The notes beneath the pieces were generated by a model. It saw only the letters and a list, made by a program, of their open reading frames with translations. It was not told where the DNA came from and made no database searches. 64,000 bases of DNA, taken from IMG/VR virus record IMGVR_UViG_3300025030_001282, positions 1-64,000 of that record. One strand, written 5' to 3'. This DNA comes from a virus. Of this stretch, positions 1,748-57,023 are shown piece by piece; the stretch's first letter is position 1, and each line of letters starts with the position of its first letter. Made by a program: the position numbers and the translations under genes.

Positions 1748-1777
1748 CGTATGCCAACACCAACAAGGGGACCGCCG

Positions 1778-4853: not shown

Positions 4854-4916
4854 GCAGGGAAACCAATCGTAAAAGCACCGGGTTACAAATAGGCCGGGCC
4901 CTTAAAGGAGAGCACC

Positions 4917-5246: not shown

Positions 5247-5278
5247 GCGGTAGCCTTTCCGATACCAGGGGGAATACC

Positions 5279-5479: not shown

Positions 5480-5736
5480 CTACCAAGATTAAAAGGCCGC
5501 GAGCGAGCGACCCTCAAAACGATGGGCCTGCTCCTGCGTGCGCTGAAGAGTGCCTGTATAGGCAAAAGTTCACCGGCTTTGCTTTACAACGCAACGCGCT
5601 GCGCTCGGAGCTGGCCTCCATGATCGAGCCCTATCGTTGCGGCTGGAACATCAAACCGGGCGCTCTAGGCGGAGAACCGCTGGACTATGAGCCGTGCATA
5701 CACGTTCCATCGCCATTAAAAGCCGCGACCCGATAA
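5476..5736 (+). CDS. Hypothetical protein
   Basis: GTGA overlap. Confidence 0.45.
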   Translation: MTTKIKRPRASDPQNDGPAPACAEECLYRQKFTGFALQRNALRSELASMIEPYRCGWNIKPGALGGEPLDYEPCIHVPSPLKAATR

Positions 5737-5746
5737 AGGAGACAGC

Positions 5747-6439
5747 ATGAAGACTACCACCGACGAAATAGCGCTGGGCATCGTCAAGGCATGGCGAACC
5801 GGGGCGTACTATGACCAGTGCCAAGCCGACGCTGCGCTGCAGTCAGCCATCAACGACCAGCTGAAGCTGATCTACCGCCGCACCCGGCAGATGGAGGAGA
5901 TCGGCAAACTGATCCGGGAGCAGGACAACCGCATTACCGACGCCCCCATTTTTATCGTGCAGCAAAAGAACCGCATCTACGGCATGGACGACGGGTACAC
6001 CGACGCCTACGACTGGTGCCACACCGACGGCGAAGGGACCGCCGACGAGGTGCTGGCTAAGCGCCTGGACGCCAAGGACCGCCAAGGCAAGAGCACCGGC
6101 AAATGGGAGAAGATCGGGTACCAGGATACCTGGGAGTTCGTGACGGCCTGTTTTACCGAGCAGGCGTGCCTCGACTACCTGAAGCGGAACGGCCACAACC
6201 TGAAGGAGACGCGCATCTACGCCGACGGCAGCTACCGCAACGAGGAGTACCGGGCGGTCCGGGAGTTCCTGATGGGGATGCCCGAGCCGGAGATATGCGA
6301 GTGGACCGAGTGCCCCGAGGAGAACCCCAAGGCGACAAGGACCATGTGGAAGGGCGCATGCGGCTCAGCCGATCTTTTTCCCAGGACCGGACCCACGGGC
6401 ACCTGCCGCTGCGGCAAGCCGGTTAAGGTGACCGCATGA
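5747..6439 (+). CDS. Ead/Ea22-like phage protein
   Basis: QDNRITDAPIF...YLKRNGHNL motifs; AAGGAG RBS. Confidence 0.65.
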   Translation: MKTTTDEIALGIVKAWRTGAYYDQCQADAALQSAINDQLKLIYRRTRQMEEIGKLIREQDNRITDAPIFIVQQKNRIYGMDDGYTDAYDWCHTDGEGTADEVLAKRLDAKDRQGKSTGKWEKIGYQDTWEFVTACFTEQACLDYLKRNGHNLKETRIYADGSYRNEEYRAVREFLMGMPEPEICEWTECPEENPKATRTMWKGACGSADLFPRTGPTGTCRCGKPVKVTA

Positions 6440-27080: not shown

Positions 27081-27121
27081 TTGCGGTATTGGCTGGCAAA
27101 GCCTTACCGCAAGGAGCATTC

Positions 27122-36611: not shown

Positions 36612-38207
36612 CTATGCGGCCAGCCCAATTTTGATCTGTGATCCGCCGTTCAAAACAGCAAATAGCGGTTTCTTAGCTTCCTTGTCGTAAGAGACGGCAC
36701 CCTCGAAGGCCTGAGCGACAGACTGCGCCTCGCAGGTGAGTTCGCGGAAAGGCTTCGTGCCATAGTCTTGCGGCAACCAACCCTTGCCCCGGCAAGCCAC
36801 GACGTTGAAGCGGCGCAGAATATCTTCATTCCTGAAGGTCAGGTGGATGGTGCCCTTTTTGTGCGCTGTGGCCTTGAAGTAGGTACTTTCCACGCCGGAG
36901 CTAACGCCAACGGCAAAGGATTTGCGGAGCGCATCAGAGATAGAAACGTATCCGGCCATGCCATCGAAGTAGTTCATAACCTTGTCGATATCGTCGAGAA
37001 CCTCGGCAGCCTTGTAATCCAGTTGCAAGCCGCTGTAGCCATAGAACGGATTGCCGTAACTGGCCCGGATCGGCACAATGACGCGGCGACCGACCTTGAA
37101 AGCCTTGTTGGTTTTCCAGCCATTGAAGTAGTGGATGTTCTTCTGCCACAGGCCATCATCCCAGCAGTGCCGCACTGTGAACATGTCGAAGACATCAAGC
37201 ACCGCTTCAGTCAGCGTTTGCTCATAGCCACCGATCAGGTTCATGACGAATTGCCGGATATTGCTTTCGGTGAAGTCCATGAAGCAGCGATCCGTCAGGG
37301 CGTGTTCGAACTCCGCCTGCTTCTTTGCGGTCAACCGGCTTTTCACATCTTTAAGGTCAAGCGTGCGACGCCAGAAGTCGACACGCACCGATCGCAGCAG
37401 CAGGTTCACTGCGTGCTGCAATTTCCCCGTGAGGTCTTCCGCAGAGCGCCCACCTTGTTGCCGCCCCCCCACGTCGTTCAACGTGAGGTATTTTCCGATG
37501 TGCCGATAGTTGCGGTAAAAGCCGGTAATCGTTTCCATCCCCACTTGCACAGCGCGGTTATATTCCAGGACCAGTTCCGAAATCGTGCGGCCATTGGACA
37601 CTTCATGCTTTTCAGTGAAGGCAGCCTTCGACTCCTGAGCGATATCTTCAGCGCCAGCAAAAAGGTCATCTTCCACACGGCGGTCGATCACGATGCTGAC
37701 CAGGGCCACCTCAACGTCCGTGCGACGCTCTGCCAGTGAAAACCCGTTAGCAATGTATTCGATGCTGGCTCCGCATTCGTCCAGACGCCGGACTAAGAGC
37801 TTTCGGCTGCTGGTATGCGGATTCCGAAGGGTCTCCGCGTTGAGGAGGAAAATAATCTGCCCCCGATACATAATGTCGAGAGCCTTGAGCAGATGCTGTT
37901 CCCCGTTTTCGAAGGGAGGATTGGCAATGATCAGGTCGAATTTATCCGGGCCGGAGTAGGCCAGGAAATCGGAATCGATCAGCTTGAAGGACTTGCCACG
38001 GAGGGTGGCTTGTAGTTCGGGGTCGCTTTCGATGGCGAAAATGTCGTCAGCAGAAAAACGCCGAGTGTGCGATGAAAGAAGCGCTTCAATGAGGTCACCC
38101 TTGCCAGCGGACGGCTCTAGAACCTTGACAGGGTGACCTTTGATTTTGCAGATCATGCGGGAGGCCAGGGAAACCGGAGTAGGGAAAAATGATTTGTTGC
38201 TTAACAC
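36612..38207 (-). CDS. N6-adenine DNA methyltransferase with DUF4942-like C-terminal domain
   Basis: FFPTP, VLEPSAGKG, IIANPPF; C-terminal KKGTIHLTF. Confidence 0.85.
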   Translation of the reverse strand: MLSNKSFFPTPVSLASRMICKIKGHPVKVLEPSAGKGDLIEALLSSHTRRFSADDIFAIESDPELQATLRGKSFKLIDSDFLAYSGPDKFDLIIANPPFENGEQHLLKALDIMYRGQIIFLLNAETLRNPHTSSRKLLVRRLDECGASIEYIANGFSLAERRTDVEVALVSIVIDRRVEDDLFAGAEDIAQESKAAFTEKHEVSNGRTISELVLEYNRAVQVGMETITGFYRNYRHIGKYLTLNDVGGRQQGGRSAEDLTGKLQHAVNLLLRSVRVDFWRRTLDLKDVKSRLTAKKQAEFEHALTDRCFMDFTESNIRQFVMNLIGGYEQTLTEAVLDVFDMFTVRHCWDDGLWQKNIHYFNGWKTNKAFKVGRRVIVPIRASYGNPFYGYSGLQLDYKAAEVLDDIDKVMNYFDGMAGYVSISDALRKSFAVGVSSGVESTYFKATAHKKGTIHLTFRNEDILRRFNVVACRGKGWLPQDYGTKPFRELTCEAQSVAQAFEGAVSYDKEAKKPLFAVLNGGSQIKIGLAA

Positions 38208-38821: not shown

Positions 38822-41800
38822 ATGCTGTACCTGCTGCTGCGCAAGAGCCAAATGGCCTTCGATTGGAACAAACCTGCCGAGAAGTCGGAACATACCGCCG
38901 AGCCCCACCACAAGGCATACGACCGAGTGACGGCCAGCGGCAAGCTGGTCCACGTCGAAGCCAAAGGCCCGCAGACCGAGGCACGCGAGAAGCTGGACCA
39001 CGGCATGAAGATCATGTACCGGACGCCGGAGATGCCTCGCCGCCGCAAGGGAACCATCACCGGCAGCGACGAATCCGGCTGGCATGTGACCGGGCAGCGT
39101 CAGGGCAACGTACTGAAGCCCTCCCAGCACGTCCTCCCCCGCGAGCAGATATGGACCATCCCGGAGCACGAGGCGGACCGGGCACCGAAGGGCACCCACG
39201 TAGCCGTCAGCGGGCACGGGCGCGTGCTGAAGCCAGAGATTGTCCGGGAACGGGCAGAGAAGGGATACGCCCGCCTGGGAATCACCGAAGACAAAGTGCT
39301 GACCCACCCCGAAGTGCTGCGCGTCATGAAAAACTCGCTGAACAAGCTCGCCAGGACCAATTCGATGATTATCGAGCCAGGGTTTAACGTGCAGAACGGC
39401 ATGATCGTGAACGATTCGCCGGAGTCGATGGACGCCTACGAAGCCTTCATGGACAGCCTGTTCAACAGCTTCCGCAGGCAGACCGCCCAGGCCCCCGACG
39501 AGATGGTGGACGAATTCCGCGACCACCTGATGGGGAAACGCGACAACAGCCGCATATTCTGGACCGGGATCCAGGACGGCGAGACGGCGGCGCTGCGCTA
39601 CGTGAAGAAGCGGAAACTGGAGCACCATACCCACGAGGAATTCAACACCTCTGCCGAAGGAGACTTCGAAGCCGGTATGCGGGAGATATCGAGCGAGACG
39701 GCGACCGCCCACCACGAGGATTCCGACCTGAAGCGCCGCATCGACCGTGACAACGCGATCGAGGGAGCCCTGGCCGAGATGCACCCGAAGGCTGCCGAGC
39801 TGCTGCGCCGCCATTTCGGCCTGGGCGATTACCAAGAGCCTCAGTCCACCGCAGCCATCGCCCGCGAGATGGGGACCACGAAGGAGAAGGTAGAAAAGGC
39901 GCTCACCCTGTCGCTGCAGGCCTTCGCCGCCACCAAGGGAAGCTCCGCCCTGCGGGAGTTTCTTAAATCGTTGCGGGAGGAACTGGATTTCAGAAAGGCC
40001 ATTGTCTACGAGGAGGAGCTGCAGAAGAGCCACATCAAGCAGTACGCCCGCATGGACGGCATCGTGGTGCAAGAGCACCAGGACAAGCGCATCGCCAAGC
40101 ACCCCGACCTGATCGCCCACGAGAACGCCCACGGCGACAAGGTACACACCGGAGCCGACCTGAAGCACGGCGCGGACCTCCAGGAGCACCTGAAGAGCCG
40201 AGGCTGGAAGCAGAAGGAAGTTTCCGCCGTGCGCAAGAAGGACGGAGCGAAGGTCGGCAAGAAGGAGGACATGCCGGAGCCGTCCGCGATCAAGGGGAAG
40301 AACCAGGAGAACTCCGCGCTGCAATCCGCACAGCGGACCATCCAGAAGATGCACGAAGCCGTGAAGAACGGCAGCGACCCGGTGGCCAGCCTGCAGGCGA
40401 TCAACACCAGCCGTGGCAACCCGTACCTCGCCGCCGTGGACGACGAGAAAAAGAAGCTCTTCGAGCACTTCGGCCATGAAACCGACGACAGCGAGAAGCA
40501 GCAGAAGTTCGACAAGGACGGGCACACGGTGATTTTGGCCGACGACGGCAAGAAGGTGGCCTTCGCCGGAGGCGATATCGAGGCGAAGGGGAATAAACCG
40601 GTGGGCTCCCTCACCGGCAAGAAGGAGGTCGAGAGCACCGATACCGGGAAGAAGCAGCCGAAGTTCATCACCGGGCGGCCCAACACGGCCTACACCGCGA
40701 AGATGAACGAGGTGAAGAGCAACTACGCCCTGGTCGAGGCGCACGACCTGACCGCCAGCCACACCATCCAGGGGCACGTGAACAAGGCATACCCCCAGGA
40801 GATCCAGCCCAGGGAGCGCGAGCGCGTTTCCAGCCAAATGCAGATGGCAAACATCATGAACGACCTGAAGCCCGAGCTGTTCGGCCACAGCGCCACCGCC
40901 TCCGATGGTGCGCCGATCGTGGGCAAGGACGGAGCGGTCGAATCCGGCAACGGGCGCACCATCGCACTTTCCGAGGCCTACAACAGGGGCCTCGCCGACA
41001 AATACAAGGAATGGCTCAAGGGGGAAGCCGAGCATTTCGGCCTGAAGCCCGAGGACGTGGAAGGGATGAAAAGCCCCATGCTGGTCCGGGTCCGGGACGA
41101 GGCGGACGGTAACAAGGACCGCGCCGAGTTCGCCCGCGAGGCAAACCAGAGCTCAAACCTGGGCAGCTCCCCCGCAGAGCAGGCCTGGACGGACGCCGAC
41201 CGCATCGACGACAGCCTGCTGAAGAAGTTCACCGCCGACGAGGACGGCGAAATCTACAACGACGACAACATGCCCTTCATCACCGCGTTCCTGGGGAAGC
41301 TGGGCAAGAACGAAGCGGCGAGCTTGCAGGACGCCGACGGCGAGCCGAACAAGAAATGCATCGAGCGGATACAGAACGCAGTGTTCGCCAAGGTGTACGG
41401 CAGCTCGGTCCTTACCGAGTTCCAGGCCGAGAGCGCCAAGCCGCGCATCAGGAACGTGCTGAAGGCGCTGAACGCCTGCGTCGGAGACTTCGCCCAGGTG
41501 AAAGGGCACGACGACCTGGACGTGATACCGGACATGATGGAGGCGATCGAGTACACCCTTTCCCACCAGAGCGTGAGCCGAGCGGAGATGGAGCACACGC
41601 TAAAGAACGCCGGAGCCCTAAACTTCACCGGGGACACGCCGACGTTCAAGACGGACTTTGCGGTCAACATGATCCTCGCCATCACCGACCGCACCGGATC
41701 CAGGAACCGGCTGCAGAACGTGTTCAAGGCCATCAGCAACGAGATAAAGACCGAGGTGGCCAGCAGGGAGAACCCGGAGGTGGACATGTTTTCTGGACCG

Positions 41801-44800
41801 GCGCAGCCGAAGACTAAAGAACAGGTGGTCAAGACCGCCCTGGAGAAGCAGGAGCGCCAGGAGATGCAGAAATCAGTAACGAGCGGGGCCTTTTTATTTA
41901 GAAAGGCACACGGAGGAGCACATGGCCGAGTTATCGGAAGAAGAAAAGTACAAGCGCAAGCAGGCGCTGCTGACGCGGGCGCTCGGGACGGCGGACAAAC
42001 TGGACGCGGAGGACGCGAAGAAGGAAGCCTCCGAAAAGGACAAAGCGAAGAAGCAGCGGGCAGAAAAGACGCAGGCCCGGCAGGAGGAGAAGGAGCAGGA
42101 AAAGGAGAAGGCCAAGAAGGACGCCGAGCCGGTTCTTGGCTGATCAAGGCCCACGTCGTAGCCTACAACCGCACCACCCACTCCGGGGCACTGGCCCAGG
42201 TACTGTCGCACGAAGACAGCCGGGTGAGCGGATACGGCGCAAAGCTGGCCAAGGTGAAGAACCCGAGCGACCTGCACAAGCTGCGCACGGAGCGCTTCGG
42301 ACACCTCCCCCATTGGGGCAGGCTCGACGACCAGACGCGCCAGCACGTGCTGAACGCCGAGGACCACATCCATGACAGGCTCAAGGCCGAGGACTTCCAC
42401 AAGAAGCTGAAGACCGCCATCTCCGAGCACCCTGCGATGGATACCATCGACCGGAGCGGCTGGGGCCAGACCCGGCTCTTCAAGGCGCTGCTGCAGAAGT
42501 CGATGGGGAAGACCATCTGCTTTGACTTTGACGGCGTGATCGCCGATTACAGCGACGGCTTTCAAGGCGTCGACGTTTTCGGCCAGCCGATCGAGGGAGC
42601 CTCCAAAACCCTGCACGAGCTGCACGACGCCGGAGTGAAGATCATCATATTCACCACCCGCCAGGACACCCCCGCGCTCCGGGCCTACCTTGAGCAGAAC
42701 AGCATCCCATTCGACGAGATCAACAGGAACAGCGACCAGCCGGACCACACCAACGAGGGCAAGCCCATCGCCGACGCCTATGTGGACGACCGAGCCGTCA
42801 GGTTCGTGAACTGGCCCCTGGCAGCCGCTATGCTGGACCACACGCTGCGCAAGAGCGTGATGCACCCGGCAATGATCCTGCGGAAAAGCCAGATGTCGCT
42901 CTTCGATTGGGTACCGCCCAAGCACGAGGAGGAGCGGACGGTACACGCGACCACCCGGCATCTTGCATCCGGCGCGGCGGTCGCAGTGAAGCAGCACGAG
43001 CGTAAGGTCCAGGTGGCGGAGAAGCCGAAGCCCGGAGGCACCAGCCTGAAGCACACGGACGAGAATTACCGCTACAAGGACGTGGGCCACGTCCCAGGGA
43101 GCCGGAAGGAGCTGGCAGCCGAGCAGGCCACCATGATCAAGCAGCGGGCAAAGACCGGCGCAGGCGTAGATTACCGGGAAGTGAATTGGGACGCCCTCGA
43201 GGAGAACCCGCGTGAGGCCTACGACCTGATCACGAAGGACTCGATCGCCAAGGAGGTGGATTGGGAGGCCATCAAAGCCAGCGGAGTGGAGCCCGGCGCA
43301 GGCTTCCTGATGTACAAGCTCTACGCTGCCGTGGCACCCAAGCCGGAAGACAGCCCCCAGGCGAGGAAGGACTTTGTGTTCGGCATCAACGCCCTGCAGG
43401 AGCGTTTCACCGATTGCAGGACCACCCCGGAGGTGATCGCCAAGATTCGGGAAATATCGGAGGAAATGACCGGCTTCACCATGAACCCGGAGCAGCAGAA
43501 GGAGTGGGAGCGCCTGGAGGCAGCATACCGCGAACCGGCGCAGACCGCCCGGAGGTTAAGCAAGGAGCACGACGCGGTATGGAACGCCTACTACAAGCCG
43601 AGCCAGCGGCTGCAGAACCTTAAATGGGACCAGGAGAAGCGGGTCCGGCGCGGCTGGAAAAAGGATCCCGAACTGGAAGCACAGATCGAGGCCCTGCAGA
43701 AAGACGTCGACGCACTGTATCAGGTGGATCAGGCGTGGAGAGCCGCCAACCAAGCGGCTACGGAGCAGGCCGACAAGGCATCCACTGCCGCCTGGAAGGA
43801 ACAGAGGGCCTTCAAGGAAAACGTGATCAACATCAACATCCTGACCCACCCGCTTACCAGAGGCTGGAACAGCTTCGGCAAGAAGTTCTTCAACGCCATC
43901 AACTACAGCAGCTACAAAGGCTCCGATGCCTTCGGCACGCACGTGGCCACCGCCAGGAGCGGCAAGGTTCAGAATTGGGACTGGCTGGAGAAAGACACCA
44001 AGCCCAGGGCGGCCAGCAAGACCTCTGTGCAGTTCCAGTTGAAGGTAGCGGAGAACGTGGAGCGCATCGGCGGTGCTCCCTTGCCCAAAGCCGACTACGG
44101 CACCGACGACATCAAGAGGGAATTTAACCTCGCCAACGTGCAAAGCGGCAACTGGGTACTGAAAGACCTGAACGCAGCGAAACACCACACTGAGCAGTGC
44201 GCTATGGCCTTCCAGGACATGGCGGATATCCTGGGCATCCCCAGCAGCGAGATCAGCATGAACGGACGCCTCTCGGTCGCCTTCGGTGCCAGGGGGAGCG
44301 GCGGAGTGTTCGGGCCGGGAGCTGCCGCCCACTACGAGAACAAGTACCGGGTGATCAACCTGACCAAGATGAAGGGCGGCGGAAGCCTCGCCCACGAGTG
44401 GCTGCACTTCCTGGACGACGTGGCAGGAGAGATCGAAACCGGAGAACGAAAAGGGCGCGAAACCTATGCAACCGATTCCGCGCCGACCACCCCGGTCCTG
44501 CAGGCGTTCAAGGATCTGGCCTTCGAGATGGAGAACGGCGGCCACAACGAGTCGATCAAAATCAAGGTCACCATCACCGAGGCGGAGAAGGAGCACTGGC
44601 TGCAAAGAGTGGAACGGGCACGTAAGAGCAACTTCTACGGGGCACCGACCATCCACATGATCGCCACAGCCAAAGACCTATCCGAGGCAGTGCAGGGCGC
44701 ATTCGACGCCATGACCGCAGGCAAGTTCGGAGCCGTGGGCGGCCACAAGGCCAAGAAGCAGTACGAGCTTTACCGGGAAATGGCCGTGGCAGTCCATGCG

Positions 44801-45217
44801 GGCACCGAGGGCACCTACGATGCTATCGGATTTAAGACCGGCAGCAAGTACTACGTCGAGTCCCAGAAGATCGACGCGGGCACGAAGGGAAGTGGCTACT
44901 GGCAGAGCCGAAAGGAAATGGCGGCCCGAGCCTTCGCCGCCTACGTCAGCGACAAGCTGCACGAGCGCAAGCGGGAGAACACCTACCTGACCAGCTACGC
45001 CGACAACAAGTACTATGTGCTGGAGGGGATCAAGCCCTACCCCGAAGGAGAAGAGCGGACCCGCATCAACGCCGCCTTTGACAAGCTGTTCGCCACGATC
45101 AAGACGAGCGGCACCCTGCAGAAGGCCATGCAGAATTATGGCCGCGACCAGGGACGGCAGGAAACCGCCCGCCGCGTAGCGTACCTCATCCGCAAAAGAG
45201 GAGCGCAGGCATGCTGA
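38822..45217 (+). CDS. 2131-aa polyvalent protein / putative virion polyprotein: sigma70-like, DdrB-like ParB, HAD phosphatase, zincin peptidase and LPD1 domains
   Basis: LLRRHFGL..EPQSTAAIAREMG (sigma region 4); QPRER, GAPIV, VESGNGRT (ParB); FDFDGVI, KP, YVDD (HAD); AHEWLH (zincin); EMAARAF, YPEGEER (LPD1). Confidence 0.85.
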   Translation: MLYLLLRKSQMAFDWNKPAEKSEHTAEPHHKAYDRVTASGKLVHVEAKGPQTEAREKLDHGMKIMYRTPEMPRRRKGTITGSDESGWHVTGQRQGNVLKPSQHVLPREQIWTIPEHEADRAPKGTHVAVSGHGRVLKPEIVRERAEKGYARLGITEDKVLTHPEVLRVMKNSLNKLARTNSMIIEPGFNVQNGMIVNDSPESMDAYEAFMDSLFNSFRRQTAQAPDEMVDEFRDHLMGKRDNSRIFWTGIQDGETAALRYVKKRKLEHHTHEEFNTSAEGDFEAGMREISSETATAHHEDSDLKRRIDRDNAIEGALAEMHPKAAELLRRHFGLGDYQEPQSTAAIAREMGTTKEKVEKALTLSLQAFAATKGSSALREFLKSLREELDFRKAIVYEEELQKSHIKQYARMDGIVVQEHQDKRIAKHPDLIAHENAHGDKVHTGADLKHGADLQEHLKSRGWKQKEVSAVRKKDGAKVGKKEDMPEPSAIKGKNQENSALQSAQRTIQKMHEAVKNGSDPVASLQAINTSRGNPYLAAVDDEKKKLFEHFGHETDDSEKQQKFDKDGHTVILADDGKKVAFAGGDIEAKGNKPVGSLTGKKEVESTDTGKKQPKFITGRPNTAYTAKMNEVKSNYALVEAHDLTASHTIQGHVNKAYPQEIQPRERERVSSQMQMANIMNDLKPELFGHSATASDGAPIVGKDGAVESGNGRTIALSEAYNRGLADKYKEWLKGEAEHFGLKPEDVEGMKSPMLVRVRDEADGNKDRAEFAREANQSSNLGSSPAEQAWTDADRIDDSLLKKFTADEDGEIYNDDNMPFITAFLGKLGKNEAASLQDADGEPNKKCIERIQNAVFAKVYGSSVLTEFQAESAKPRIRNVLKALNACVGDFAQVKGHDDLDVIPDMMEAIEYTLSHQSVSRAEMEHTLKNAGALNFTGDTPTFKTDFAVNMILAITDRTGSRNRLQNVFKAISNEIKTEVASRENPEVDMFSGPAQPKTKEQVVKTALEKQERQEMQKSVTSGAFLFRKAHGGAHGRVIGRRKVQAQAGAADAGARDGGQTGRGGREEGSLRKGQSEEAAGRKDAGPAGGEGAGKGEGQEGRRAGSWLIKAHVVAYNRTTHSGALAQVLSHEDSRVSGYGAKLAKVKNPSDLHKLRTERFGHLPHWGRLDDQTRQHVLNAEDHIHDRLKAEDFHKKLKTAISEHPAMDTIDRSGWGQTRLFKALLQKSMGKTICFDFDGVIADYSDGFQGVDVFGQPIEGASKTLHELHDAGVKIIIFTTRQDTPALRAYLEQNSIPFDEINRNSDQPDHTNEGKPIADAYVDDRAVRFVNWPLAAAMLDHTLRKSVMHPAMILRKSQMSLFDWVPPKHEEERTVHATTRHLASGAAVAVKQHERKVQVAEKPKPGGTSLKHTDENYRYKDVGHVPGSRKELAAEQATMIKQRAKTGAGVDYREVNWDALEENPREAYDLITKDSIAKEVDWEAIKASGVEPGAGFLMYKLYAAVAPKPEDSPQARKDFVFGINALQERFTDCRTTPEVIAKIREISEEMTGFTMNPEQQKEWERLEAAYREPAQTARRLSKEHDAVWNAYYKPSQRLQNLKWDQEKRVRRGWKKDPELEAQIEALQKDVDALYQVDQAWRAANQAATEQADKASTAAWKEQRAFKENVININILTHPLTRGWNSFGKKFFNAINYSSYKGSDAFGTHVATARSGKVQNWDWLEKDTKPRAASKTSVQFQLKVAENVERIGGAPLPKADYGTDDIKREFNLANVQSGNWVLKDLNAAKHHTEQCAMAFQDMADILGIPSSEISMNGRLSVAFGARGSGGVFGPGAAAHYENKYRVINLTKMKGGGSLAHEWLHFLDDVAGEIETGERKGRETYATDSAPTTPVLQAFKDLAFEMENGGHNESIKIKVTITEAEKEHWLQRVERARKSNFYGAPTIHMIATAKDLSEAVQGAFDAMTAGKFGAVGGHKAKKQYELYREMAVAVHAGTEGTYDAIGFKTGSKYYVESQKIDAGTKGSGYWQSRKEMAARAFAAYVSDKLHERKRENTYLTSYADNKYYVLEGIKPYPEGEERTRINAAFDKLFATIKTSGTLQKAMQNYGRDQGRQETARRVAYLIRKRGAQAC
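41922..42143 (+). CDS. Overprinted 73-aa Lys/Glu-rich helical protein nested in the +1 frame of the polyprotein
   Basis: GGAGGAG RBS just upstream of the ATG; G/C-ending codons in this frame. Confidence 0.6.
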   Translation: MAELSEEEKYKRKQALLTRALGTADKLDAEDAKKEASEKDKAKKQRAEKTQARQEEKEQEKEKAKKDAEPVLG

Positions 45218-46167
45218 TACTTTTAAAGAAAAAGCACGCATTGCGTGCAGAAACGATGCAAAAGGCGCGAAAGCTTGACGGACGCATAAACTTCAACGGC
45301 CTGGAGGTGTCGATCGAGACAGGGCGCTCCCGTTGCCGGGTCTGGTACGACCCGCACAACAAGAGCGAGGGCATGTCCCGGATGGCGCTCCCCTACGGTT
45401 ACATCAAGGGGACGCTGGGCACCGACGGGGACCACGTGGACGTGTTCGTCGGCCCGGACCACAGCGCCCCCGAGGTCTACGTGATCCACACCACGAAGGC
45501 CCCCGACTTCACTGAGTACGACGAGGACAAATGCGTCCTGGGAGTAGGAAGCCCCGAGGCGGCCCAGCGGGCATTCTCCGCGAGCTACAGCGACCCGCAG
45601 TTTTACGGCGGCATGAGCATCTGGCCTTTCGAGGAATTCAAGGCGCACGTGCTATCGAGCGAGGCCAAGGGGCAGCCCCTGCGGAAGTCCGGAGAGGAGT
45701 ACTGCAAGAAGCTCGGGGACCAGCTGGGCATCGATTGGAAGCAGGTAGACCTGGATGCATTCTGCGACGGCATGTTCGAGGAGGACGGCAAGCACGGAAG
45801 CATCGCGGGAGCCGCTAGGGTAGTGATCGCCAACCTGAAGAAAGACCCGCACTGCTACTCCGGGGAGAGCAAGAGCGGCAGGCTGCAGAAGGCGCTCTTC
45901 ACCGTCGCGGAAATCCGGGAACGTGCCCAGAAGGCATATCGGGAGGCCTGCACCGCTGCAGGCGGCAACTGGAACGATCTGAACCCGGAGGAGTTCTACC
46001 AGGGGATGAAGGAGGAGATGGAGCACCGGGACGTGACAGGAGGTGATCTGGTCCTGACCGCCAAGATCGTCCTCGCCCACCTGCGGGAAGACGCGAGCTA
46101 TTACAGCAAGCTTGAAAGACTGCAGAAGGCTAGGAAGACCCGACTTCTTGCCGGTGCCTACTGGTAA
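45211..46167 (+). CDS. Phage inorganic-pyrophosphatase-like (InPase) domain plus two DUF5661-like repeats
   Basis: PYGYIKGT.GTDGDHVDVFVGP, YDEDK; GMKEEMEH...KIVLAHLRED..YY. Confidence 0.8.
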   Translation: MLILLKKKHALRAETMQKARKLDGRINFNGLEVSIETGRSRCRVWYDPHNKSEGMSRMALPYGYIKGTLGTDGDHVDVFVGPDHSAPEVYVIHTTKAPDFTEYDEDKCVLGVGSPEAAQRAFSASYSDPQFYGGMSIWPFEEFKAHVLSSEAKGQPLRKSGEEYCKKLGDQLGIDWKQVDLDAFCDGMFEEDGKHGSIAGAARVVIANLKKDPHCYSGESKSGRLQKALFTVAEIRERAQKAYREACTAAGGNWNDLNPEEFYQGMKEEMEHRDVTGGDLVLTAKIVLAHLREDASYYSKLERLQKARKTRLLAGAYW

Positions 46168-46170
46168 CGG

Positions 46171-46485
46171 GTGGGCCACGACAGGGATAGCATAACCCAG
46201 CACGCCTGGGACCGTTTTCTGGAAAGGTGGGAAGGCAGACGCCCAGCCTGCTGGCGCAAAGAACTGTACCGCCTGATCGAGACATCGGTTTTCGAAGACC
46301 TGGGGCATGGGCAAGTTGTCCGGCTGATTAACCACGGATATCAGCCAGCGGTTTACCTCACCACAGAAGGCTGGCGCTTTGTGGTGGACAAGACCTCCGG
46401 GATACTGCTGACATGCGAACGAGCGTATAAAAGGGCGAAGGCCCGAGCGCCCAAGGGGATCAGCCGGAAGAGGTGCGGGCGATAA
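46171..46485 (+). CDS. Hypothetical protein (ITQHAWDRFLER, toxin/RNase-like start)
   Basis: Follows InPase and precedes a terminator. Confidence 0.5.
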   Translation: MGHDRDSITQHAWDRFLERWEGRRPACWRKELYRLIETSVFEDLGHGQVVRLINHGYQPAVYLTTEGWRFVVDKTSGILLTCERAYKRAKARAPKGISRKRCGR

Positions 46486-46525
46486 AGGGAAGGGGGGAGG
46501 CGCTGTCTCCTCTCCCCTTCCCTTT
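46484..46525. terminator. Bidirectional intrinsic terminator
   Basis: AAAGGGAAGGGGGGAGG...CCTCTCCCCTTCCCTTT inverted repeat between convergent genes. Confidence 0.75.
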
Positions 46526-46977
46526 CAGATCCTGAAGAACCCCAACTGCCCCTTTAAGGGATAGAAGGGCAGCGGCTTGATATCGCGCAGCACAAAGCCA
46601 TACGGCCCCATGAACCAGGGTGAATCCGACCTGTTGACGCAATCCACGATCTCCGCCTCGCCGATGATACCGCCGCGCTCAATAGTGCCCGCCATGATCT
46701 CCCTGCACCCCTTTTCCCAAGCCTCCGGGCACCGCTGCCGCACCCAATCCCAGGAACCGCGCCACTCGTCCTTCGTCACGCCTTTAGCCGCATGGATCAG
46801 GACGCGGCCCCGCACCTTTGTCCGCCAGGAGCGGTTTTCAATATCTTTGCCAGCATTGACGATAAGCCACGCCCACGGCTGCCGGATGGAAAGGACCAGC
46901 CCGGTCGGAGCGGGACCAGAAGTGATAAGCCCAGCAGCCGACGGCGCGGCTGGGGGGAAGAGACAAAGATCACCCAC
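46525..46977 (-). CDS. ASCH-domain protein
   Basis: LSIRQPWAWLIV.GKDIENRSW...LIHAAK...KGQLGFF; GGAGGT RBS before GTG at 46977. Confidence 0.85.
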   Translation of the reverse strand: MGDLCLFPPAAPSAAGLITSGPAPTGLVLSIRQPWAWLIVNAGKDIENRSWRTKVRGRVLIHAAKGVTKDEWRGSWDWVRQRCPEAWEKGCREIMAGTIERGGIIGEAEIVDCVNRSDSPWFMGPYGFVLRDIKPLPFYPLKGQLGFFRI

Positions 46978-47093
46978 GAGACACCTCCTACACACCAAGA
47001 TACCTACGCGCAAAGAAAGGCCGCCACGGAAAATGATATCGGAAAAGACAAAAAGTTTGACCGAGTGAAATTATTGACATACGCTACAGCGAA

Positions 47094-47285
47094 ATGGCCA
47101 AGCCGCGCACAATATACCTGCTTCGCAAAAGCAGCCAGGGCGCAGAAGAGGCGATCCCGGTACTGACCCGAACGGACCTGCCGCTCAGGTTCCACTACAA
47201 GGGCCGGGAAATAAACATAGAGGCAACCCCCAAGGGAAACCTCGTAATCAAAGAGACACGCTTGACAGGGAACAACGGGGAGTAG
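47094..47285 (+). CDS. 63-aa protein with YLLRKS leader; weak HemP-like C-terminus
   Basis: HYKGREINIEATPKGNLVIK; follows a copy of the 15-bp motif. Confidence 0.5.
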   Translation: MAKPRTIYLLRKSSQGAEEAIPVLTRTDLPLRFHYKGREINIEATPKGNLVIKETRLTGNNGE

Positions 47286-47313
47286 CCGAAAGGCAAATGA
47301 CCCGTCCAGTTAT

Positions 47314-47347
47314 AGGCGACTACCGGTACTACCGGAGTCGCCTTTTT
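47314..47347 (+). terminator. Intrinsic terminator/attenuator upstream of the protease gene
   Basis: AGGCGACT-A-CCGG-TACTA-CCGG-AGTCGCCT-TTTT. Confidence 0.65.
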
Positions 47348-47363
47348 GCGTTTGGAGCCCGGA

Positions 47364-48305
47364 ATGGAAGCAGAAGACCAAGTCCTATTTGAATTGCCGG
47401 TGGAACTGGAACTCAGAAAGAGCCAGGGCAGCAGCACGCCGCGCCGCATTCTCCGGGGCTACGCATCCACCGCGAGCAAGGACCAGGACGGCGAAACTGT
47501 TTTGCAGCACGGGATGGACTTTTCCCCGCTCCTGAAATCCGGCTTCATGAACTACGACCACCAGGGCAAGTGCCTGCAATGCCAAGTGGTGTCTGATCGC
47601 CCGGTCTGCCCCAGCTGCGGATCCAGAGCAAAGATGCCGATTATCATCGGCTACCCGCTCAGCGCCGAGATCCGGGACAAGGGATGGTGGCTGGAAAGCG
47701 AAATTTTCAACGGTGCCGCCGCCGTCGACGTCAACAGCGACCAGCTGCGGCTCGCAGACGAAATGTGGGCGCTCGGTATGGCCATGCAGAAATCTGGCGG
47801 TAACAGGAGCCTTGCCTATTCGGTCGAGGGAGGCGTCCTGCAGCGGCACGGCAAGAAGGTGGTTAAGTCCGTGGTCCGGCACTGCGCCGTTACCCACAAG
47901 CCGGTGAACGAGGACGCAAGCGTCGAGCTGTTCATGAAATCCATGTGCTGCGGGCGCTGCAACCCGGATCACATGCTCTACGTGCCCGGCCACAGCTGCG
48001 GAAGCCATGCGGAAGACGAAGTGCAGAAAGCCATGTCCACCGAATCCGCCGCGCCGCTCATGCTGCAGAACCTGGACCGGGGCACCTCGGGGCTCCTGTA
48101 CGGGATGAACCCGACCGCCTGCGGCTGCTGCGATGAAAACTGGAAGTTCAAGAACGGAGTGGTGGGAGCAGCCAACCACCTTCAGAAATGCCAGGGGCTA
48201 TCCAAGGACCAAAGCATATCGTTCCTGCGCAAAGTGATCCATAACGCGCCGCACCGTCCCGACCTTGCGGCGCTCGTCAAACAAGCCGGTCTCATAGGCA
48301 ATTAA
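47364..48305 (+). CDS. Prohead maturation protease
   Basis: GYAST..DQDGE, NYDH, YSVEG, PVN motifs; upstream of scaffold and capsid. Confidence 0.85.
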   Translation: MEAEDQVLFELPVELELRKSQGSSTPRRILRGYASTASKDQDGETVLQHGMDFSPLLKSGFMNYDHQGKCLQCQVVSDRPVCPSCGSRAKMPIIIGYPLSAEIRDKGWWLESEIFNGAAAVDVNSDQLRLADEMWALGMAMQKSGGNRSLAYSVEGGVLQRHGKKVVKSVVRHCAVTHKPVNEDASVELFMKSMCCGRCNPDHMLYVPGHSCGSHAEDEVQKAMSTESAAPLMLQNLDRGTSGLLYGMNPTACGCCDENWKFKNGVVGAANHLQKCQGLSKDQSISFLRKVIHNAPHRPDLAALVKQAGLIGN

Positions 48306-48324
48306 AGAGGGGAGGAATATACGC

Positions 48325-49065
48325 ATGGACGCAAGGGCTAAAGCCAAAAAACAGTACGACGACACGATGGCCGAGCTGGACCTGCTCGAAAAATCGCAGA
48401 AAACCGGCGATGAAGCTACCGACGATCTGGAGGCGCTTACCAAGTCGCTGGAAGCGGAACTTGCAGGGGACGACCCCCTGAAGAAATCCGGGGACAACGA
48501 CGCGGACGACAAGGGCGGCAAAACCGAGGGCGACGAGGAAACCGAGATGGAGAAATCCCTCCGCCTCGCCGCCGAGGAAGAACTCCGCAAAGCCCAGGAA
48601 GCCGAGCAGGAGGAGTACGACGAACTGGTGAAGGCCAGCGAGGCGTATGCAGCTCTCGAGGAGACGATCCAGAAGTCCCACGGCGGGATTCAGGAGCAAC
48701 TTTCGACGCTGTGCAAGAGCATGGCAGCCCTGACCAACCTCAACCTCAAGATGGCCGGTGTGATTACCGCGCAGTCCGGAGAGATCGCCACCCTGAAGAA
48801 GTCCCGCGAAGAGGATCTGGAAACCATCCAGAAATCCGTGGCCACCCTGGGCGGCAGGCCGGTCATGCCGAACACTGCGGTCCTCGGCGTGAAGCTGGTC
48901 GACGGCAAGGAAGAGACGCTGACCAAATCCCTTTCCGAAATCGGCGACGACCTGACCAAGGCAGTCCAGGAAGGCAAGATCGATTCCCGCCACCTCTCGG
49001 TGTGGGGCACCTACAAGGACGTCAACCGGCTGCCCGACGAAGTAAAGACGCTCATCGGCATTTAA
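48325..49065 (+). CDS. Head scaffolding protein
   Basis: Acidic coiled coil between protease and capsid with 12 hydrophobic-x-K-[SA] sites. Confidence 0.8.
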   Translation: MDARAKAKKQYDDTMAELDLLEKSQKTGDEATDDLEALTKSLEAELAGDDPLKKSGDNDADDKGGKTEGDEETEMEKSLRLAAEEELRKAQEAEQEEYDELVKASEAYAALEETIQKSHGGIQEQLSTLCKSMAALTNLNLKMAGVITAQSGEIATLKKSREEDLETIQKSVATLGGRPVMPNTAVLGVKLVDGKEETLTKSLSEIGDDLTKAVQEGKIDSRHLSVWGTYKDVNRLPDEVKTLIGI

Positions 49066-49107
49066 CGGTCTTACAACAGGCCTGCACTCAAAAAGGGAGG
49101 AATTAGC

Positions 49108-50547
49108 GTGGATATCCAGAGTTTTGACATGATGCTGAAAGCAGGCGGATATAGCCTGACCGGGGACCAGATCGTCGACGATCTCCGCAAAGCACTTACC
49201 ACCACCAACAGCGGCCCCGGCGGCATCCAGTCCGGCCCGCTGATGCTGGAGAACCTGGACTCGGTCATGACCGAAGTCCTGATCACTGAGCAGCATTTCA
49301 AGCTGTTCAACAAACTGCCCAAGGTGCCGAGCGCCCAGCCGTACTACGAGTACAACGTCCACAAGGGCTTCGGCTCGAACCGTTCCGGTGGTGCAGGCTT
49401 CCGCCAGGGCGGAGCGCCGAAGGGCGGCACCAGCTCCTTCGAGAGAAAGGGCATCTACAACAAGTTCCTGGGCGTAAAAGGCGGAGTGACCCACCAGATG
49501 CTCATCACCGGGCAGAACGGCGGGAGCTTCGAAGACCCCACGGTCCGCGAAAACCGCGACCGCACCCTGGAGCTGCTGGAGAAGGTCGAGCGTGAACTGA
49601 TGTTCGGCCAGAAAGCCATCCTCGACGAGAACGGCGAGGAAGTAAACTTCGACGGACTGCTGACCCAGCTGCTCGCCGACAACGGCGCGAACGTGATCGA
49701 CATGAAGGGTGCGCCCCTGACCTTCGACGAGCTGGACGACGCCGCCCAGGATCTGATCACGACCGGCAAGCAGCCTTCGGTGAACGGTTACCAGATTCTG
49801 CAGAGCCCGCACGTTTCCAGCGGCCTCAACAAGCAGTTCGGCACCAGGAACCAGGTCCGCTTCAACAAGGACAGCGCCGTGAACGCGAACTACGTCCCCG
49901 GCCAGAGCATCAACAAGTACGATTCGGAGTTCGGCACCTTCGAGTTCGACCACTCCATCCTCCTGCAGGAAGTGGAAGCCGCCGCTCCGGTCGCTGCCGC
50001 GCCCGCCAACGTTCCCGCCACCCCGGCGATCACCACCCAGCCCGCAGCAGCCGACGACGCCGTAGGCAACCACATTGCCGGGACGGTCTACTACTCCATC
50101 GCGGCCTTTAACGATACCGGCGAGAGCCTGCCGGTGATCACCGACGCCGTCGCCATCCCGGACGCTACCAGCAAGGTGACCACCGTCATCACCCGGCTGG
50201 CAGGGGCCACCGGCTACCGCATTTATCGCGGCAAGCTGGCCGACGGCTCCGACCACAAGTGGATTGCCAAGGTGGCACAGAGCACCTCCGGCAACATCAC
50301 CTTCGTGGACAAGAACGGCTGGTTCACCACCGACGCCAACGGCAAGCAGTCCGACGGCCTCGCCCTGATGATCAAGCCCGAGGCCCGCGACATCGCCATC
50401 GCACAGATGACGCCGATGATCAAGATGCCGCTGCCGCAGGAGGGGACCACCTTCCCCTTCCTGCTGCTGCTCTACATCGTCAGCGTGATCAAGGCCCCGG
50501 AAAGGGTCAAGATTTACAAGAACTGCGGCACCTTTACCCCGGCCTAG
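49108..50547 (+). CDS. Major capsid protein (SPO1/A511-like, with inserted Ig-like domain)
   Basis: DLRKAL, PLMLENLD, NFDGL, GES, GYRIYRG; followed by a terminator. Confidence 0.9.
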   Translation: MDIQSFDMMLKAGGYSLTGDQIVDDLRKALTTTNSGPGGIQSGPLMLENLDSVMTEVLITEQHFKLFNKLPKVPSAQPYYEYNVHKGFGSNRSGGAGFRQGGAPKGGTSSFERKGIYNKFLGVKGGVTHQMLITGQNGGSFEDPTVRENRDRTLELLEKVERELMFGQKAILDENGEEVNFDGLLTQLLADNGANVIDMKGAPLTFDELDDAAQDLITTGKQPSVNGYQILQSPHVSSGLNKQFGTRNQVRFNKDSAVNANYVPGQSINKYDSEFGTFEFDHSILLQEVEAAAPVAAAPANVPATPAITTQPAAADDAVGNHIAGTVYYSIAAFNDTGESLPVITDAVAIPDATSKVTTVITRLAGATGYRIYRGKLADGSDHKWIAKVAQSTSGNITFVDKNGWFTTDANGKQSDGLALMIKPEARDIAIAQMTPMIKMPLPQEGTTFPFLLLLYIVSVIKAPERVKIYKNCGTFTPA

Positions 50548-55283: not shown

Positions 55284-57023
55284 ATGGGAGTAGGAACAGG
55301 AGTGCTCTGGAAGGGGGCATATTATGTGCGTCCGCAAGCCGGGTCGTTTATTGACTCTTCGGCGCTTAGCGCCGTTCAGCTCGGCAGCGCCAACAAGGTC
55401 TGTATTCTGGGAGAGATGACCGGCCTCCTTGCGCCAAAGACGCTGAAACAGATCGATTCGACGCTGGCAAATGCCCTGCTGGCACCATCCAACGAGGAGG
55501 CGAGACTCGCCGCCCAGCTGGTCTTCAACCCGTCACCGGGGACACCTGGCGCAACAGAGGTTTACCTGCTGCCGGTCAACCCCTCAACCGCTGCCGCACT
55601 GACGCTGGGCACATCGCTGAAGTTCGACAGCTACATCTATGGTTTGATCGCCAATCAGATCAAGATCAAGCTAGAGAACGGTACGACCGTCGGGAAAAAA
55701 GTCACGGTGGCCTTTCTCGACAACACGGAAATTCACGACGATATCACCAAGAGCTCCTTCAGCATCCAATACACCGGCTTGGGTTCTTCCTGCGCGTTGA
55801 CAATCACGCCGACTGCCGCAGGCCATATTCTTTCAACCGCCTGCGCTGGAGCGACCGCCGACAACCTGTCTATCGACCTGAACGTGTACACCAATGTTCA
55901 GGCGATCCTCGACGCCATTGCCGCAACAGGCAAGTACACCGTGACGGCTATCACCAAATCGCCGAAAAACGACTTGGGGATGCAGTTGGACGGCGCAACC
56001 TCGCAGGACATCAAGACGGCTGCCTTCACAGCCAAAGCCGACCTGCAGGCGATTATAGACCGGCTGGGCGAGCGTTCGGCATATGTCAGCCCGAGCCGGG
56101 TGGCGGACGCCATAGCTGCCCCGGCAAACGTGTCCTGGACGTTCCTTGCCGGTGCCGTTGACGGCACGACCACAAACAATGACTGGCAGGCGGCATTTGA
56201 TCTCCTGAAGAGCGTCAACATGGATGTGCTGGTCCCGCTCACAAGCGCCCCGGCGATCCACTCAATGGGAGACGCGCACTGCAACTACATGTCCGGCCCC
56301 ATCGGCAAAAGCGAGCGACGGCAGTTCGTCGGAGGAGCATTGCAGACATGGTCCACTGAAGTTGGTCGAACTGCGGCTGTTGCCGCACTGAAAGCTGCGG
56401 TCACTGCCATAAACAGCGACCGGACAGTGCACGTCGGCCTGGGGTGCAAGCAGTACGACCCGAATGGCAACGTGAAACTCTACCCGGCCTACATTACGGC
56501 CTGCATATATGCGGGGATGGCGGGAGGGGCCTCGCCTGTTACCCCGCTCACGCGGAAATACCTGAGCTGCATCGGCCTCGAGGTGAATCTGCGCAACACC
56601 GAGATAAATGATCTGCTCGAAGGGCATTGCGCCGTTCCGATCCCTGATCTGGTCCAGGAGGCAGGTTATGTGATTTCACGTCAAATCACAACTTGGGCGC
56701 AGGACGCGGACCTTTACCGGGTGGAATTCTCGGTCGGACGCGGTGCTGACTACCTGGCACGCGAAGTCCGCAACCGGCACGAACTGCTTATCGGCAAGCC
56801 GGGAACGCCGGGGATGGACACAACGATCATCAACACCACCAATGCCGTGCTCGAAGCTGCTCTTCGCGACGAGATCATCACCTCGTATAACCCGAAAGCG
56901 ACGACGCTTCGTGCAGACGGGGTCGTTAGGTACATCGACTATTCAGCCAAGCCGGTGCTGCCGATTAACTGGATCTTTTCCACTTACCACCTGCTGCCGA
57001 CAAAGTTCTCGATCGGGCTTTAA
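55284..57023 (+). CDS. Contractile tail sheath protein
   Basis: 579 aa; YVRP, NQIKIK, DW.AAF, PLTRK, PVLPINWI motifs. Confidence 0.88.
   Translation: MGVGTGVLWKGAYYVRPQAGSFIDSSALSAVQLGSANKVCILGEMTGLLAPKTLKQIDSTLANALLAPSNEEARLAAQLVFNPSPGTPGATEVYLLPVNPSTAAALTLGTSLKFDSYIYGLIANQIKIKLENGTTVGKKVTVAFLDNTEIHDDITKSSFSIQYTGLGSSCALTITPTAAGHILSTACAGATADNLSIDLNVYTNVQAILDAIAATGKYTVTAITKSPKNDLGMQLDGATSQDIKTAAFTAKADLQAIIDRLGERSAYVSPSRVADAIAAPANVSWTFLAGAVDGTTTNNDWQAAFDLLKSVNMDVLVPLTSAPAIHSMGDAHCNYMSGPIGKSERRQFVGGALQTWSTEVGRTAAVAALKAAVTAINSDRTVHVGLGCKQYDPNGNVKLYPAYITACIYAGMAGGASPVTPLTRKYLSCIGLEVNLRNTEINDLLEGHCAVPIPDLVQEAGYVISRQITTWAQDADLYRVEFSVGRGADYLAREVRNRHELLIGKPGTPGMDTTIINTTNAVLEAALRDEIITSYNPKATTLRADGVVRYIDYSAKPVLPINWIFSTYHLLPTKFSIGL

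Follow-up and report, generated by a model that had tools for sequence, protein, structure and literature searches.

How does a phage whose effector domains are encoded as one very long chain load them into its head, and how do they come apart again? Polyvalent proteins are widespread in phages and conjugative elements, and we know of no account of their packaging and separation other than one published proposal, self-processing by an embedded metallopeptidase. Here we examine a locus that raises this question in a 64-kb window, the whole stretch of 64,000 nucleotides (nt) that was analysed (positions 1 to 64,000 of IMG/VR record IMGVR_UViG_3300025030_001282), which is part of one 79.9-kb genome contig with a GC content of about 60%. 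A gene for a protein of 2131 amino acids (aa), here called the giant protein, lies directly upstream of genes for an InPase protein and for the protease, scaffold and capsid of the head. The giant protein is probably a polyprotein of polyvalent cargo that is directed into the capsid, where a prohead protease of the SPO1 type would cut it at a short code, h-x-K|[S/A], in which h is hydrophobic. A preliminary description of the window had put forward such a cargo polyprotein. It gains support from motif enrichment, from the mapping of sites onto linkers and from cassette shuffling among relatives, and from these we infer that the cargo is cleaved, packaged and injected.

The genes on which the argument draws are the following.

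27089-28849, portal.
38822..45217, plus strand, gene for the 2131-aa (238 kDa) putative polyvalent cargo precursor; a single open frame with high GC content at third codon positions (GC3) except in a spacer.
45211..46167, plus strand, InPase protein of 318 aa with two DUF5661-like repeats (Pfam InPase and DUF5661).
47364..48305, plus strand, prohead maturation protease (phrog_1028, E 5e-33), a homologue of SPO1 gp3.2.
48325..49065, plus strand, scaffolding protein with 12 sites.
49108..50547, plus strand, major capsid protein (phrog_752, SU10_MCP) with sites MLK|A (K11) and DLRK|A (K28).
55284-57023, tail sheath (phrog_279).

Judged from its genes, the phage is a tailed, contractile-tail myophage, and its genes for protease, scaffold and capsid belong to the SPO1 (Herelleviridae) type. 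A megablast search of 38822-50547 against a phage collection returned no close isolate. Related head modules, eight and then some 25 more, were taken from IMG/VR, and the order giant protein, InPase protein, protease, scaffold, capsid recurs in L001, L002, L003 and L009 (hereafter the four relatives) and in L017.

Sites were counted as [LIMFV]-x-K-[SA] and compared with two null expectations: 2000 composition-preserving shuffles of each protein, and a Poisson expectation from the rate in all other open reading frames (ORFs) of the 80-kb genome, which carry 0.25 sites per 100 aa at an observed/shuffle ratio of 1.26. The scaffold holds 12 sites against 0.94 expected from shuffling, within an overall range of 0.6-1, and its enrichment reaches 12-fold (Poisson p = 3e-12). 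The protease has 6 against 0.8 (p = 2e-4), the giant protein 17 against about 5-6.3, depending on whether shuffles or background set the expectation (p = 4e-5), and the InPase protein 4 against 0.8-0.9 (p = 9e-3). Gene 33325, with 2 sites against 0.16 expected, is marginal (p = 0.018), and no other further gene of the genome stands out. Motif counts alone were not significant for the capsid (p = 0.12) or the portal (p = 0.06) when tested against the other ORFs. Every site listed in the preliminary description was in place. Among the genes to which it attributed further sites, the protease stood up to the statistics, whereas the portal and gene 33325 were individually weak. When all 20 residues were scanned without bias at the position before the predicted cut (the P1 subsite), K was the most enriched in the scaffold, protease, giant protein and InPase protein alike. 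At the position after it (P1′), S and A were the top two residues in the scaffold and giant protein; the protease was led by S and the InPase protein by A.

The enrichment is confirmed as real and well above chance, and it recurs across relatives. Scaffolds in related loci carry 8-13 sites where about 1 is expected, proteases 5-9 where about 0.8 is expected, and the large cargo proteins encoded upstream 8-14 where 3-4.5 are expected; related capsids have mostly 3 sites, clustered at the N-terminus, and tail and baseplate genes stay near background. Over-representation is a property of head and cargo proteins and not of tail or accessory proteins, here and in more than 15 related loci, and so the comparison proposed with the earlier reading comes out in its favour.

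To see where the sites fall within the giant protein, we set them against its modules, which are listed here in order along the gene.

38822..38845, plus strand, N-terminal leader MLYLLLRK, ending at site K8|S9.
38846..39967, plus strand, N module, residues 9-382 (42 kDa).
39959..40030, plus strand, junction 1, triple site FLK|S, FRK|A, LQK|S (K382, K392, K402).
40028..41872, plus strand, DdrB-ParB module, residues 403-1017 (68 kDa).
41864..41908, plus strand, junction 2, MQK|S and FRK|A (K1017, K1028).
41906..42148, plus strand, low-complexity spacer of 81 aa, residues 1029-1109, ending LIK|A (K1109).
41922..42143, plus strand, nested ORF of 73 codons in the +1 frame, wholly inside the spacer.
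42149..42484, plus strand, small domain, residues 1110-1221 (13 kDa), with a predicted beta-hairpin tag at its start.
42476..42502, plus strand, junction 3, LFK|A and LQK|S (K1221, K1226); one BLAST block runs up to 1221 and that of HAD begins at 1230, and confidence in the AlphaFold2 (AF2) model is low.
42500..42853, plus strand, HAD-type phosphatase cassette, residues 1227-1344 (13 kDa).
42845..42889, plus strand, junction 4, LRK|S and ILRK|S (K1344, K1355), both kept in five of five sequences and disordered in the AF2 model.
42887..45124, plus strand, C module, residues 1356-2101 (84 kDa), with HEWLH at nt 44393-44407 and LPD1 at nt 44882-45106.
45116..45214, plus strand, last site LQK|A (K2101), 6 residues beyond the end of the LPD1 match, and C-terminal tail of 30 aa.
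38918-38962, 40043-40096 (degenerate), 42164-42205 and 42950-42991, copies of a [Y/T]xRx3SGx4V peptide.

Twelve of the 17 sites fall into six groups at module junctions (K8; K382/K392/K402; K1017/K1028 with K1109; K1221/K1226; K1344/K1355; K2101), in agreement with the clustering at domain junctions described before. The remaining five (VEKA 359, VNKA 655, VLKA 881, VFKA 969 and LPKA 1756) equal the background expectation of about 5, and the whole excess of the giant protein therefore sits at the junctions. Three of them, VEKA, VLKA and VFKA, had been flagged at the outset as falling inside domains, rightly so: they are interior and at background level, and in relatives VNKA, VLKA and VFKA become INRA, VLRA and VFRA. 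A change from K to R never occurs at junctions. There the sites are kept in five of five sequences with the K invariant and P2 free, despite insertions and deletions in the diverging linkers around them.

Profile matches identify most of the modules that these junctions separate. The DdrB-ParB module matches ddrB-ParB (Pfam PF18763) at residues 629-758 (E 2e-35) within a DdrB-like block spanning 597-993, and residues 610-1037 are homologous to DdrB of phage P1 (34% identity, E 1e-61). The HAD cassette matches phrog_1238 over residues 1229-1338 (E 3e-27), the Pfam HAD match at 1232-1278 being weak and below threshold. In the C module LPD1 is found at 2021-2095 (Pfam, E about 1e-21 to 9e-21), together with PHROGs 29900, 18947 and 616, and its neighbours in a protein atlas are LPD1 clusters at 0.93-0.94. 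The C module also contains, at residue 1858, a single zincin-type HExxH motif (HEWLH) that matched no Pfam model and is absent from the giant proteins of relatives; a BLAST comparison of this module with the C-terminus of P1 DdrB found no similarity. Neither the N module nor the small domain matched Pfam or PHROG. The N module is collinear with the N modules of the four relatives at 31-34% identity, and its protein-atlas neighbours, sigma-70 r2/r4 clusters at 0.90-0.91, provide a language-model lead that it is possibly helix-turn-helix or sigma-like. The small domain has a homologue in a standalone 190-aa protein, L008_b, whose leader ends in LVK|A. Among the effector labels proposed at first, DdrB-ParB, HAD, LPD1, InPase and DUF5661 are thus borne out by profiles, whereas "sigma-like" stays a language-model lead and "peptidase", which depends on one HExxH motif, a lead only.

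The N-terminal site and the junction sites could be followed individually. The leader followed by [LRT]K|SQ[ML]xLFD[WY] is kept in six of six aligned N-termini, with K8, S9 and Q10 invariant, and also in P0002-P0008 and P0020. At junction 1 all three sites are kept in five of five sequences, the first two closing the N module and the third opening the DdrB module; at junction 2 the motif is kept in four to five of five relatives. The K1355 site of junction 4 repeats the N-terminal leader inside the chain: ILRKSQMSLFDW can be aligned to the N-termini of relatives, and residues 1348-1420 as a whole reproduce internally how the precursors of relatives begin (ILRK|SQMSLFDW...).

In an AF2 model of residues 1000-1420, for which the mean predicted local distance difference test score (pLDDT) is a low 59, the chain is helical up to 1020, disordered over 1021-1110, folded with confidence over 1114-1202 (pLDDT 70-95), and passes through a low-confidence linker (1209-1228) into a HAD fold, after which come disorder at 1344-1366 and beta hairpins at 1369-1398. 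At junction 2 the helix stops at 1020 and disorder follows. All seven sites in the modelled region (1017, 1028, 1109, 1221, 1226, 1344 and 1355) are found where a helix ends or where pLDDT is below 50. The InPase protein gives a comparable picture, with a disordered leader (1-23), a folded core (24-148) and the other three of its sites outside the confident core. In both proteins the sites in the AlphaFold models map to linkers or domain ends, a check proposed in the preliminary description that comes out in its favour.

If the sites separate cassettes, homologues might be expected to rearrange at them, as the preliminary description had suggested, and they do. BLAST collinearity between the giant protein and those of the four relatives breaks at residues 393/400, 1221, 1230 and 1346/1353, within 0-4 residues of a site at all four junctions (p about 4e-5 by simulation). 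The HAD cassette follows the DdrB module and small domain in the window and stands between the N and DdrB modules in the four relatives; it is flanked by sites in both arrangements. Modules also occur on their own, each with a leader that ends in a site: the DdrB-ParB module in P0010, P0011 and P0015 (leader ending L[IT]K|SH, in P0010 and P0011 L[IT]K|SHI...), and others in P0009, L008_b (LVK|AH...) and L008_c. A scan of viral contigs with P0010 gave no match. A site occurs within the first 35 residues in 14 of 17 close relatives, compared with 22 of 132 distant DdrB-ParB proteins, and the overall observed/expected motif ratio is 2.64 in the former and 1.52 in the latter. This contrast indicates that the motif tracks the phage lineage and not the cargo domain family. 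In L008 the same position holds other cargo (96-3431 and 4461-5813), namely an SNF2 helicase/ART-PolyVal protein, in which sites 646 and 823 flank the ART domain, and a fusion of InPase to topoisomerase IB with sites around the InPase.

The InPase protein repeats this organization on a smaller scale. Pfam places InPase at residues 23-146 (E 5e-27) and DUF5661 at 258-304, and the sites are at K18, K159, K227 and K306; the one before the InPase domain is kept in six of six sequences and the one after it in five of six. The gene had been described as punctuated by sites in the same way as the giant gene, and its count and the conservation of the flanking sites agree with this. In L001 the InPase domain, a separate gene in the window, is fused to the C-terminal end of the giant protein behind LIK|A, and that of L008 is joined, behind LIK|S, to a topoisomerase IB. 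The small, conserved gene at 46171-46485 was considered as further cargo and rejected: the N-terminal LRK|A of its L002 counterpart becomes LRR in the L005 and L009 relatives. On the other side of the cargo gene, just upstream of it, is a 531-aa DNA methyltransferase-like gene (36612-38207, minus strand; phrog_32703, phrog_6263).

The presumed reader of the code is the protease encoded downstream, which is 33% identical to SPO1 gp3.2 (BLASTP, E 2e-33). Its likely start is ATG 47364, although the ORF is open from TTG 47346. H72 (in NYDH) and S159 (in YSVEG) are invariant in 8 sequences and are predicted, by analogy, to be catalytic. The sites ELRK|S, FxK|S and xxK|[AS] (K25/S26, K198/S199 and K228) are likewise invariant, and it is plausible from their positions on either side of the catalytic domain that they serve self-processing. 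A phmmer search of the protease against Protein Data Bank (PDB) sequences gave nothing meaningful, and a complex prediction with the protease, the scaffold and the 80-residue N-terminus of the cargo scored 0.00, which, without controls, speaks neither for nor against binding. The protease also carries a CxxC...CPSC insertion resembling a zinc ribbon at 47568-47640, roughly residues 75-98 when numbering starts at 47346. The window shares this insertion with L002, L005 and L009; L001, L004, L006, L007 and SPO1 lack it. The C-terminus of the protease (48255-48305), RPDLAALVKQAGLIGN, resembles that of the scaffold (49015-49065), LPDEVKTLIGI. The resemblance suggests a shared capsid-binding tail, as in other phages with a common protease/scaffold C-terminus.

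The same pattern is found in SPO1. The SPO1 scaffold has 11 sites against 1.1 expected and its protease 5 against 1.05; in the capsid LNK|A at residue 23 is the only site, and the genes from 6.2 to the sheath have none. The capsid of the window is about 25% identical over its full length to those of SPO1, CP-51 and other Herelleviridae, and an h-x-K|A-L site at residues 23-30 is present in SPO1, in two low-GC SPO1-type loci and in most of the related capsid N-termini printed. Capsid cleavage after Lys and before Ser/Ala is predicted from these sites. Given the same motif pattern across the lineage, the motif behaves like a code by which the prohead protease of the SPO1 type recognizes its substrates. 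Among the SPO1 head-module genes examined, none resembles a polyvalent cargo protein.

Between junction 2 and the small domain lies a segment that matches no module. The spacer is rich in Gly, Ala, Arg and Glu, is modelled with pLDDT below 50 and without secondary structure, and is poorly conserved in sequence among relatives, although its flanking sites are kept. Within it, main-frame GC3 drops to 0.30-0.55 and the high-GC3 phase shifts to the +1 frame, which holds the nested ORF. A GGAGGAG lies 6 nt upstream of the ATG of that ORF, its product is rich in Lys and Glu, and it is kept at 47-53% identity in the four relatives; searches of Pfam and PHROG found no match. A nested gene placed wholly between two conserved sites is what would be expected if the spacer segment were cut out and discarded.

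The [Y/T]xRx3SGx4V peptide lies 5-24 residues after sites K8, K1109 and K1355, and a degenerate copy after K402 was found by eye. These 3 matches to the strict pattern, against 0.8 expected, are the only ones in the genome, and relatives too have the peptide behind sites. In the AF2 model it forms a beta hairpin, and it may be a sorting, docking or ejection tag.

Taken together, these observations suggest the following sequence of events. The giant and InPase proteins, whose genes adjoin those of the head, would be made late together with the head proteins. They would enter the prohead by means of the short hydrophobic/basic N-terminal leader, perhaps helped by the hairpin tag that follows most sites. 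Once active, the protease would cut four substrates: the scaffold, into peptides of 11-34 aa if every site is used; the capsid, with removal of 28 residues; itself; and the cargo, at the paired or tripled sites in its linkers. The products of the giant protein would be the N module of about 42 kDa, DdrB-ParB (68 kDa), the small domain (13 kDa), HAD (13 kDa) and the LPD1/HExxH module (84 kDa), and an 8-kDa junk spacer that merely houses the overlapping gene; the InPase and DUF5661 pieces would be freed as well. These products would be kept in the filled head, leave it with the DNA and act before any phage gene is expressed. Presence of the cargo in the virion is predicted from its homology to P1 DdrB, a virion protein (PMC9024508), and ejection into the host along with the DNA by analogy with P1 Dar and T4 internal proteins.

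Several observations weigh against this reading. All of the evidence consists of sequence statistics and comparison, for this phage and its close relatives. The experimental anchor for cleavage after lysine in this capsid lineage is the A511 capsid, reportedly cleaved between Lys and Ser (Loessner and Scherer 1995), which we do not count among our results. Chance alone would account for about 5 of the giant protein's 17 sites. Four bare matches to the motif occur in the tail sheath, where 1.3 are expected, and we take them as chance; a bare match therefore means little, and it is the distribution of matches that carries the signal. The SNF2 and ART cargo protein of L008 (L008_a) is not enriched, with 4 sites against 4.6 expected, and the ratio of 1.5 in distant DdrB-ParB proteins implies that part of the excess is generic. 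Shallow alignments leave both AF2 models with a low confidence overall (mean pLDDT about 58). Finally, the internal sites might be fossils of former N-termini, left behind by gene fusion.

That last possibility amounts to a different account, in which only N-terminal leaders are removed, like the capsid-targeting sequence of T4, and the giant protein is packaged essentially intact. Site 1355, a literal copy of an N-terminus down to the Met, speaks for it, as does the occurrence of modules as separate genes with leaders in relatives, and very large proteins are packaged uncut in P1 (DarB) and in N4 (virion RNA polymerase) (PMC9024508, PMC5512222). But fossil leaders would not require two or three sites per junction, 5-11 residues apart, nor an invariant K at every junction site across proteins whose N modules are only 31-34% identical. 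Sites also bracket the junk spacer as well as the C-terminal tail, at neither of which a gene ever began, and exposed, disordered sites amid an active prohead protease would be cut whatever their origin. We consider this account unlikely. The motif could instead be a docking or assembly signal, for example a short helix cap through which proteins are recruited by binding to the capsid interior, to the scaffold or to the protease zymogen, and not a scissile bond. It is present in all proteins that must co-assemble in the prohead, and two copies internal to the protease, MQKS and VVKS, sit inside the catalytic domain and are conserved in SPO1, which means that not every copy needs cutting. Degradation is nevertheless a better fit for 12 evenly spread copies in a scaffold that must exit the head; the capsid copy lies where a short N-terminal propeptide is expected in this lineage; and a strict K with a small P1′ residue and a free P2 is the signature of protease subsites. 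A pure docking role has, in our estimate, little chance of being correct.

The remaining alternatives bear on who does the cutting and on whether the motif means anything at all. An embedded zincin-like metallopeptidase might process the polyvalent protein with no involvement of the head protease, as Iyer et al. proposed for P1 DdrB; these authors argue that metallopeptidase (MPTase) domains process polyvalent proteins (PMC5512222), and HEWLH does stand beside LPD1 in the C module of the window. The four relatives, however, have giant proteins that lack any comparable zincin HExxH while retaining the junction sites, and this speaks against self-processing by such an enzyme. The motif is, moreover, common to the scaffold, capsid and protease, and occurs in SPO1, whose examined head genes include no polyvalent cargo, and the C module has no detectable similarity to the C-terminus of P1 DdrB. 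The chance that the metallopeptidase is the processing enzyme appears slim. Nor does it help to dismiss the enrichment as a by-product of composition or secondary structure, of helices and linkers rich in L, K, S and A with no specific function. Natural proteins do slightly exceed their shuffles, by a factor of 1.26 in this genome and of 1.5 among distant DdrB-ParB proteins, but composition would have to account for a 12-fold enrichment in the scaffold, for K alone being enriched among 20 P1 residues, for a K that swaps to R inside domains and never at junctions, and for the coincidence of sites with independent rearrangement breakpoints. This explanation is very unlikely, the least probable of those weighed here. 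Processing of a polyvalent cargo polyprotein by the head protease therefore remains our preferred interpretation, and it is probably correct.

With its own flanking sites, each cassette could be moved, fused or split off into another gene without loss of function. We tentatively extend this into a plug-and-play grammar, a possibility to which we give somewhat less than even weight, in which paired sites flank each cassette and a hairpin tag starts each large retained fragment, so that any cassette could be swapped and still be packaged, released and ejected. Such a grammar, if true, tolerates a disposable spacer that hosts an overprinted gene, makes the head protease and not an embedded metallopeptidase the answer to how polyvalent proteins are processed, and turns leader, site and tag into a portable signal for loading foreign proteins into capsids. 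The locus offers a concrete and directly testable alternative to the published proposal, a head protease that reads a short code common to cargo, scaffold and capsid. If that is correct, the theme of targeting and then trimming familiar from T4 and P1 extends to a true polyprotein logic in a DNA phage, the mature injected proteome becomes predictable from sequence across the lineage, SPO1-type heads included, and a minimal leader-and-site module suggests itself for loading chosen proteins into phage capsids with the usual systems of the laboratory.

Capsid-targeted cargo trimmed by a head protease is already known, as are polyvalent proteins. What the locus appears to add is a multi-cassette precursor with the head-protease code doubled or tripled at its seams, cassettes that are shuffled at these same seams from one relative to another, a disposable spacer in which a gene is overprinted, and a lysine-type code in common with SPO1-like phages. 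In T4, the internal proteins IPI-III and Alt are loaded by a short N-terminal peptide ending in the gp21 motif (L/I-x-E|) and are injected against host defences (PMC9026906, PMC9024508). Their leader, like that of the giant protein, ends in the motif of the scaffold and capsid sites, at which the head protease cuts in T4. They differ in being single small cargo proteins that lose only a propeptide, whereas the precursor here is a 238-kDa multi-cassette protein with 12 junction sites, and their P1 residue is Glu where that of the present phage is Lys, in an SPO1-type head module.

The Dar system of phage P1 (DarA, DdrB, DarB, Hdf, DdrA, Ulx) is closer in content. DdrB, the homologue of the central module, was found in the P1 head by mass spectrometry, and the P1 capsid protein gp23 is cut at MLE|S (both PMC9024508), a site that we confirmed in its sequence. 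DarB has an N-terminal capsid-targeting signal. Residues 1-69 of DarA are missing from the structure, which was attributed to cleavage by Pro (PMC12810830); we find LLE|A at residue 68, resembling the capsid site and likely to be the cleavage site. In the P1 regions compared (L011; 19014-20033 and 27904-29823), Pro has 7 h-x-E-[SA] motifs against 1.4 expected, of the same kind as MLE|S in the capsid protein, whereas the Dar proteins are not enriched for this motif, DarA having one well-placed site. The polyprotein logic thus does not extend to P1. There, the cargo is encoded by separate genes scattered in the genome, the protease code is h-x-E, and DdrB combines the ParB part and a putative metallopeptidase in one protein, while in the window these occupy separate cassettes.

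Phage-type polyvalent proteins, as described by Iyer, Burroughs, Anand, de Souza and Aravind in 2017 (PMC5512222), are multi-domain effectors whose genes adjoin virion genes and for which packaging and delivery are predicted. The present locus shares their hallmark DdrB-ParB, LPD1 and InPase domains and their virion-gene neighbours. It departs from the embedded MPTase proposed for them in that its sites match the head-protease motif and persist in relatives without the MPTase motif. In phiKZ, 201phi2-1 and SPN3US, the gp175/gp245 motif S/A/G-x-E is common to many internal head and ejection proteins and the capsid, with several cuts within long propeptides (PMC10052503, PMC5694885); in SPN3US, however, all identified cleavages other than the protease's own remove N-terminal propeptides and do not separate functional cassettes (PMC10052503). 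SPO1 has the same gene order of protease, scaffold and capsid, related protease and capsid proteins and the same h-x-K|[S/A] pattern, but no polyvalent cargo genes in the head module examined. By the strict measure of a viral polyprotein, the likeness lies in cassettes parted by protease-type sites at which cleavage is predicted, and the difference in a protease that is separately encoded: the cargo would work like a polyprotein while being filed under no RNA-virus family.

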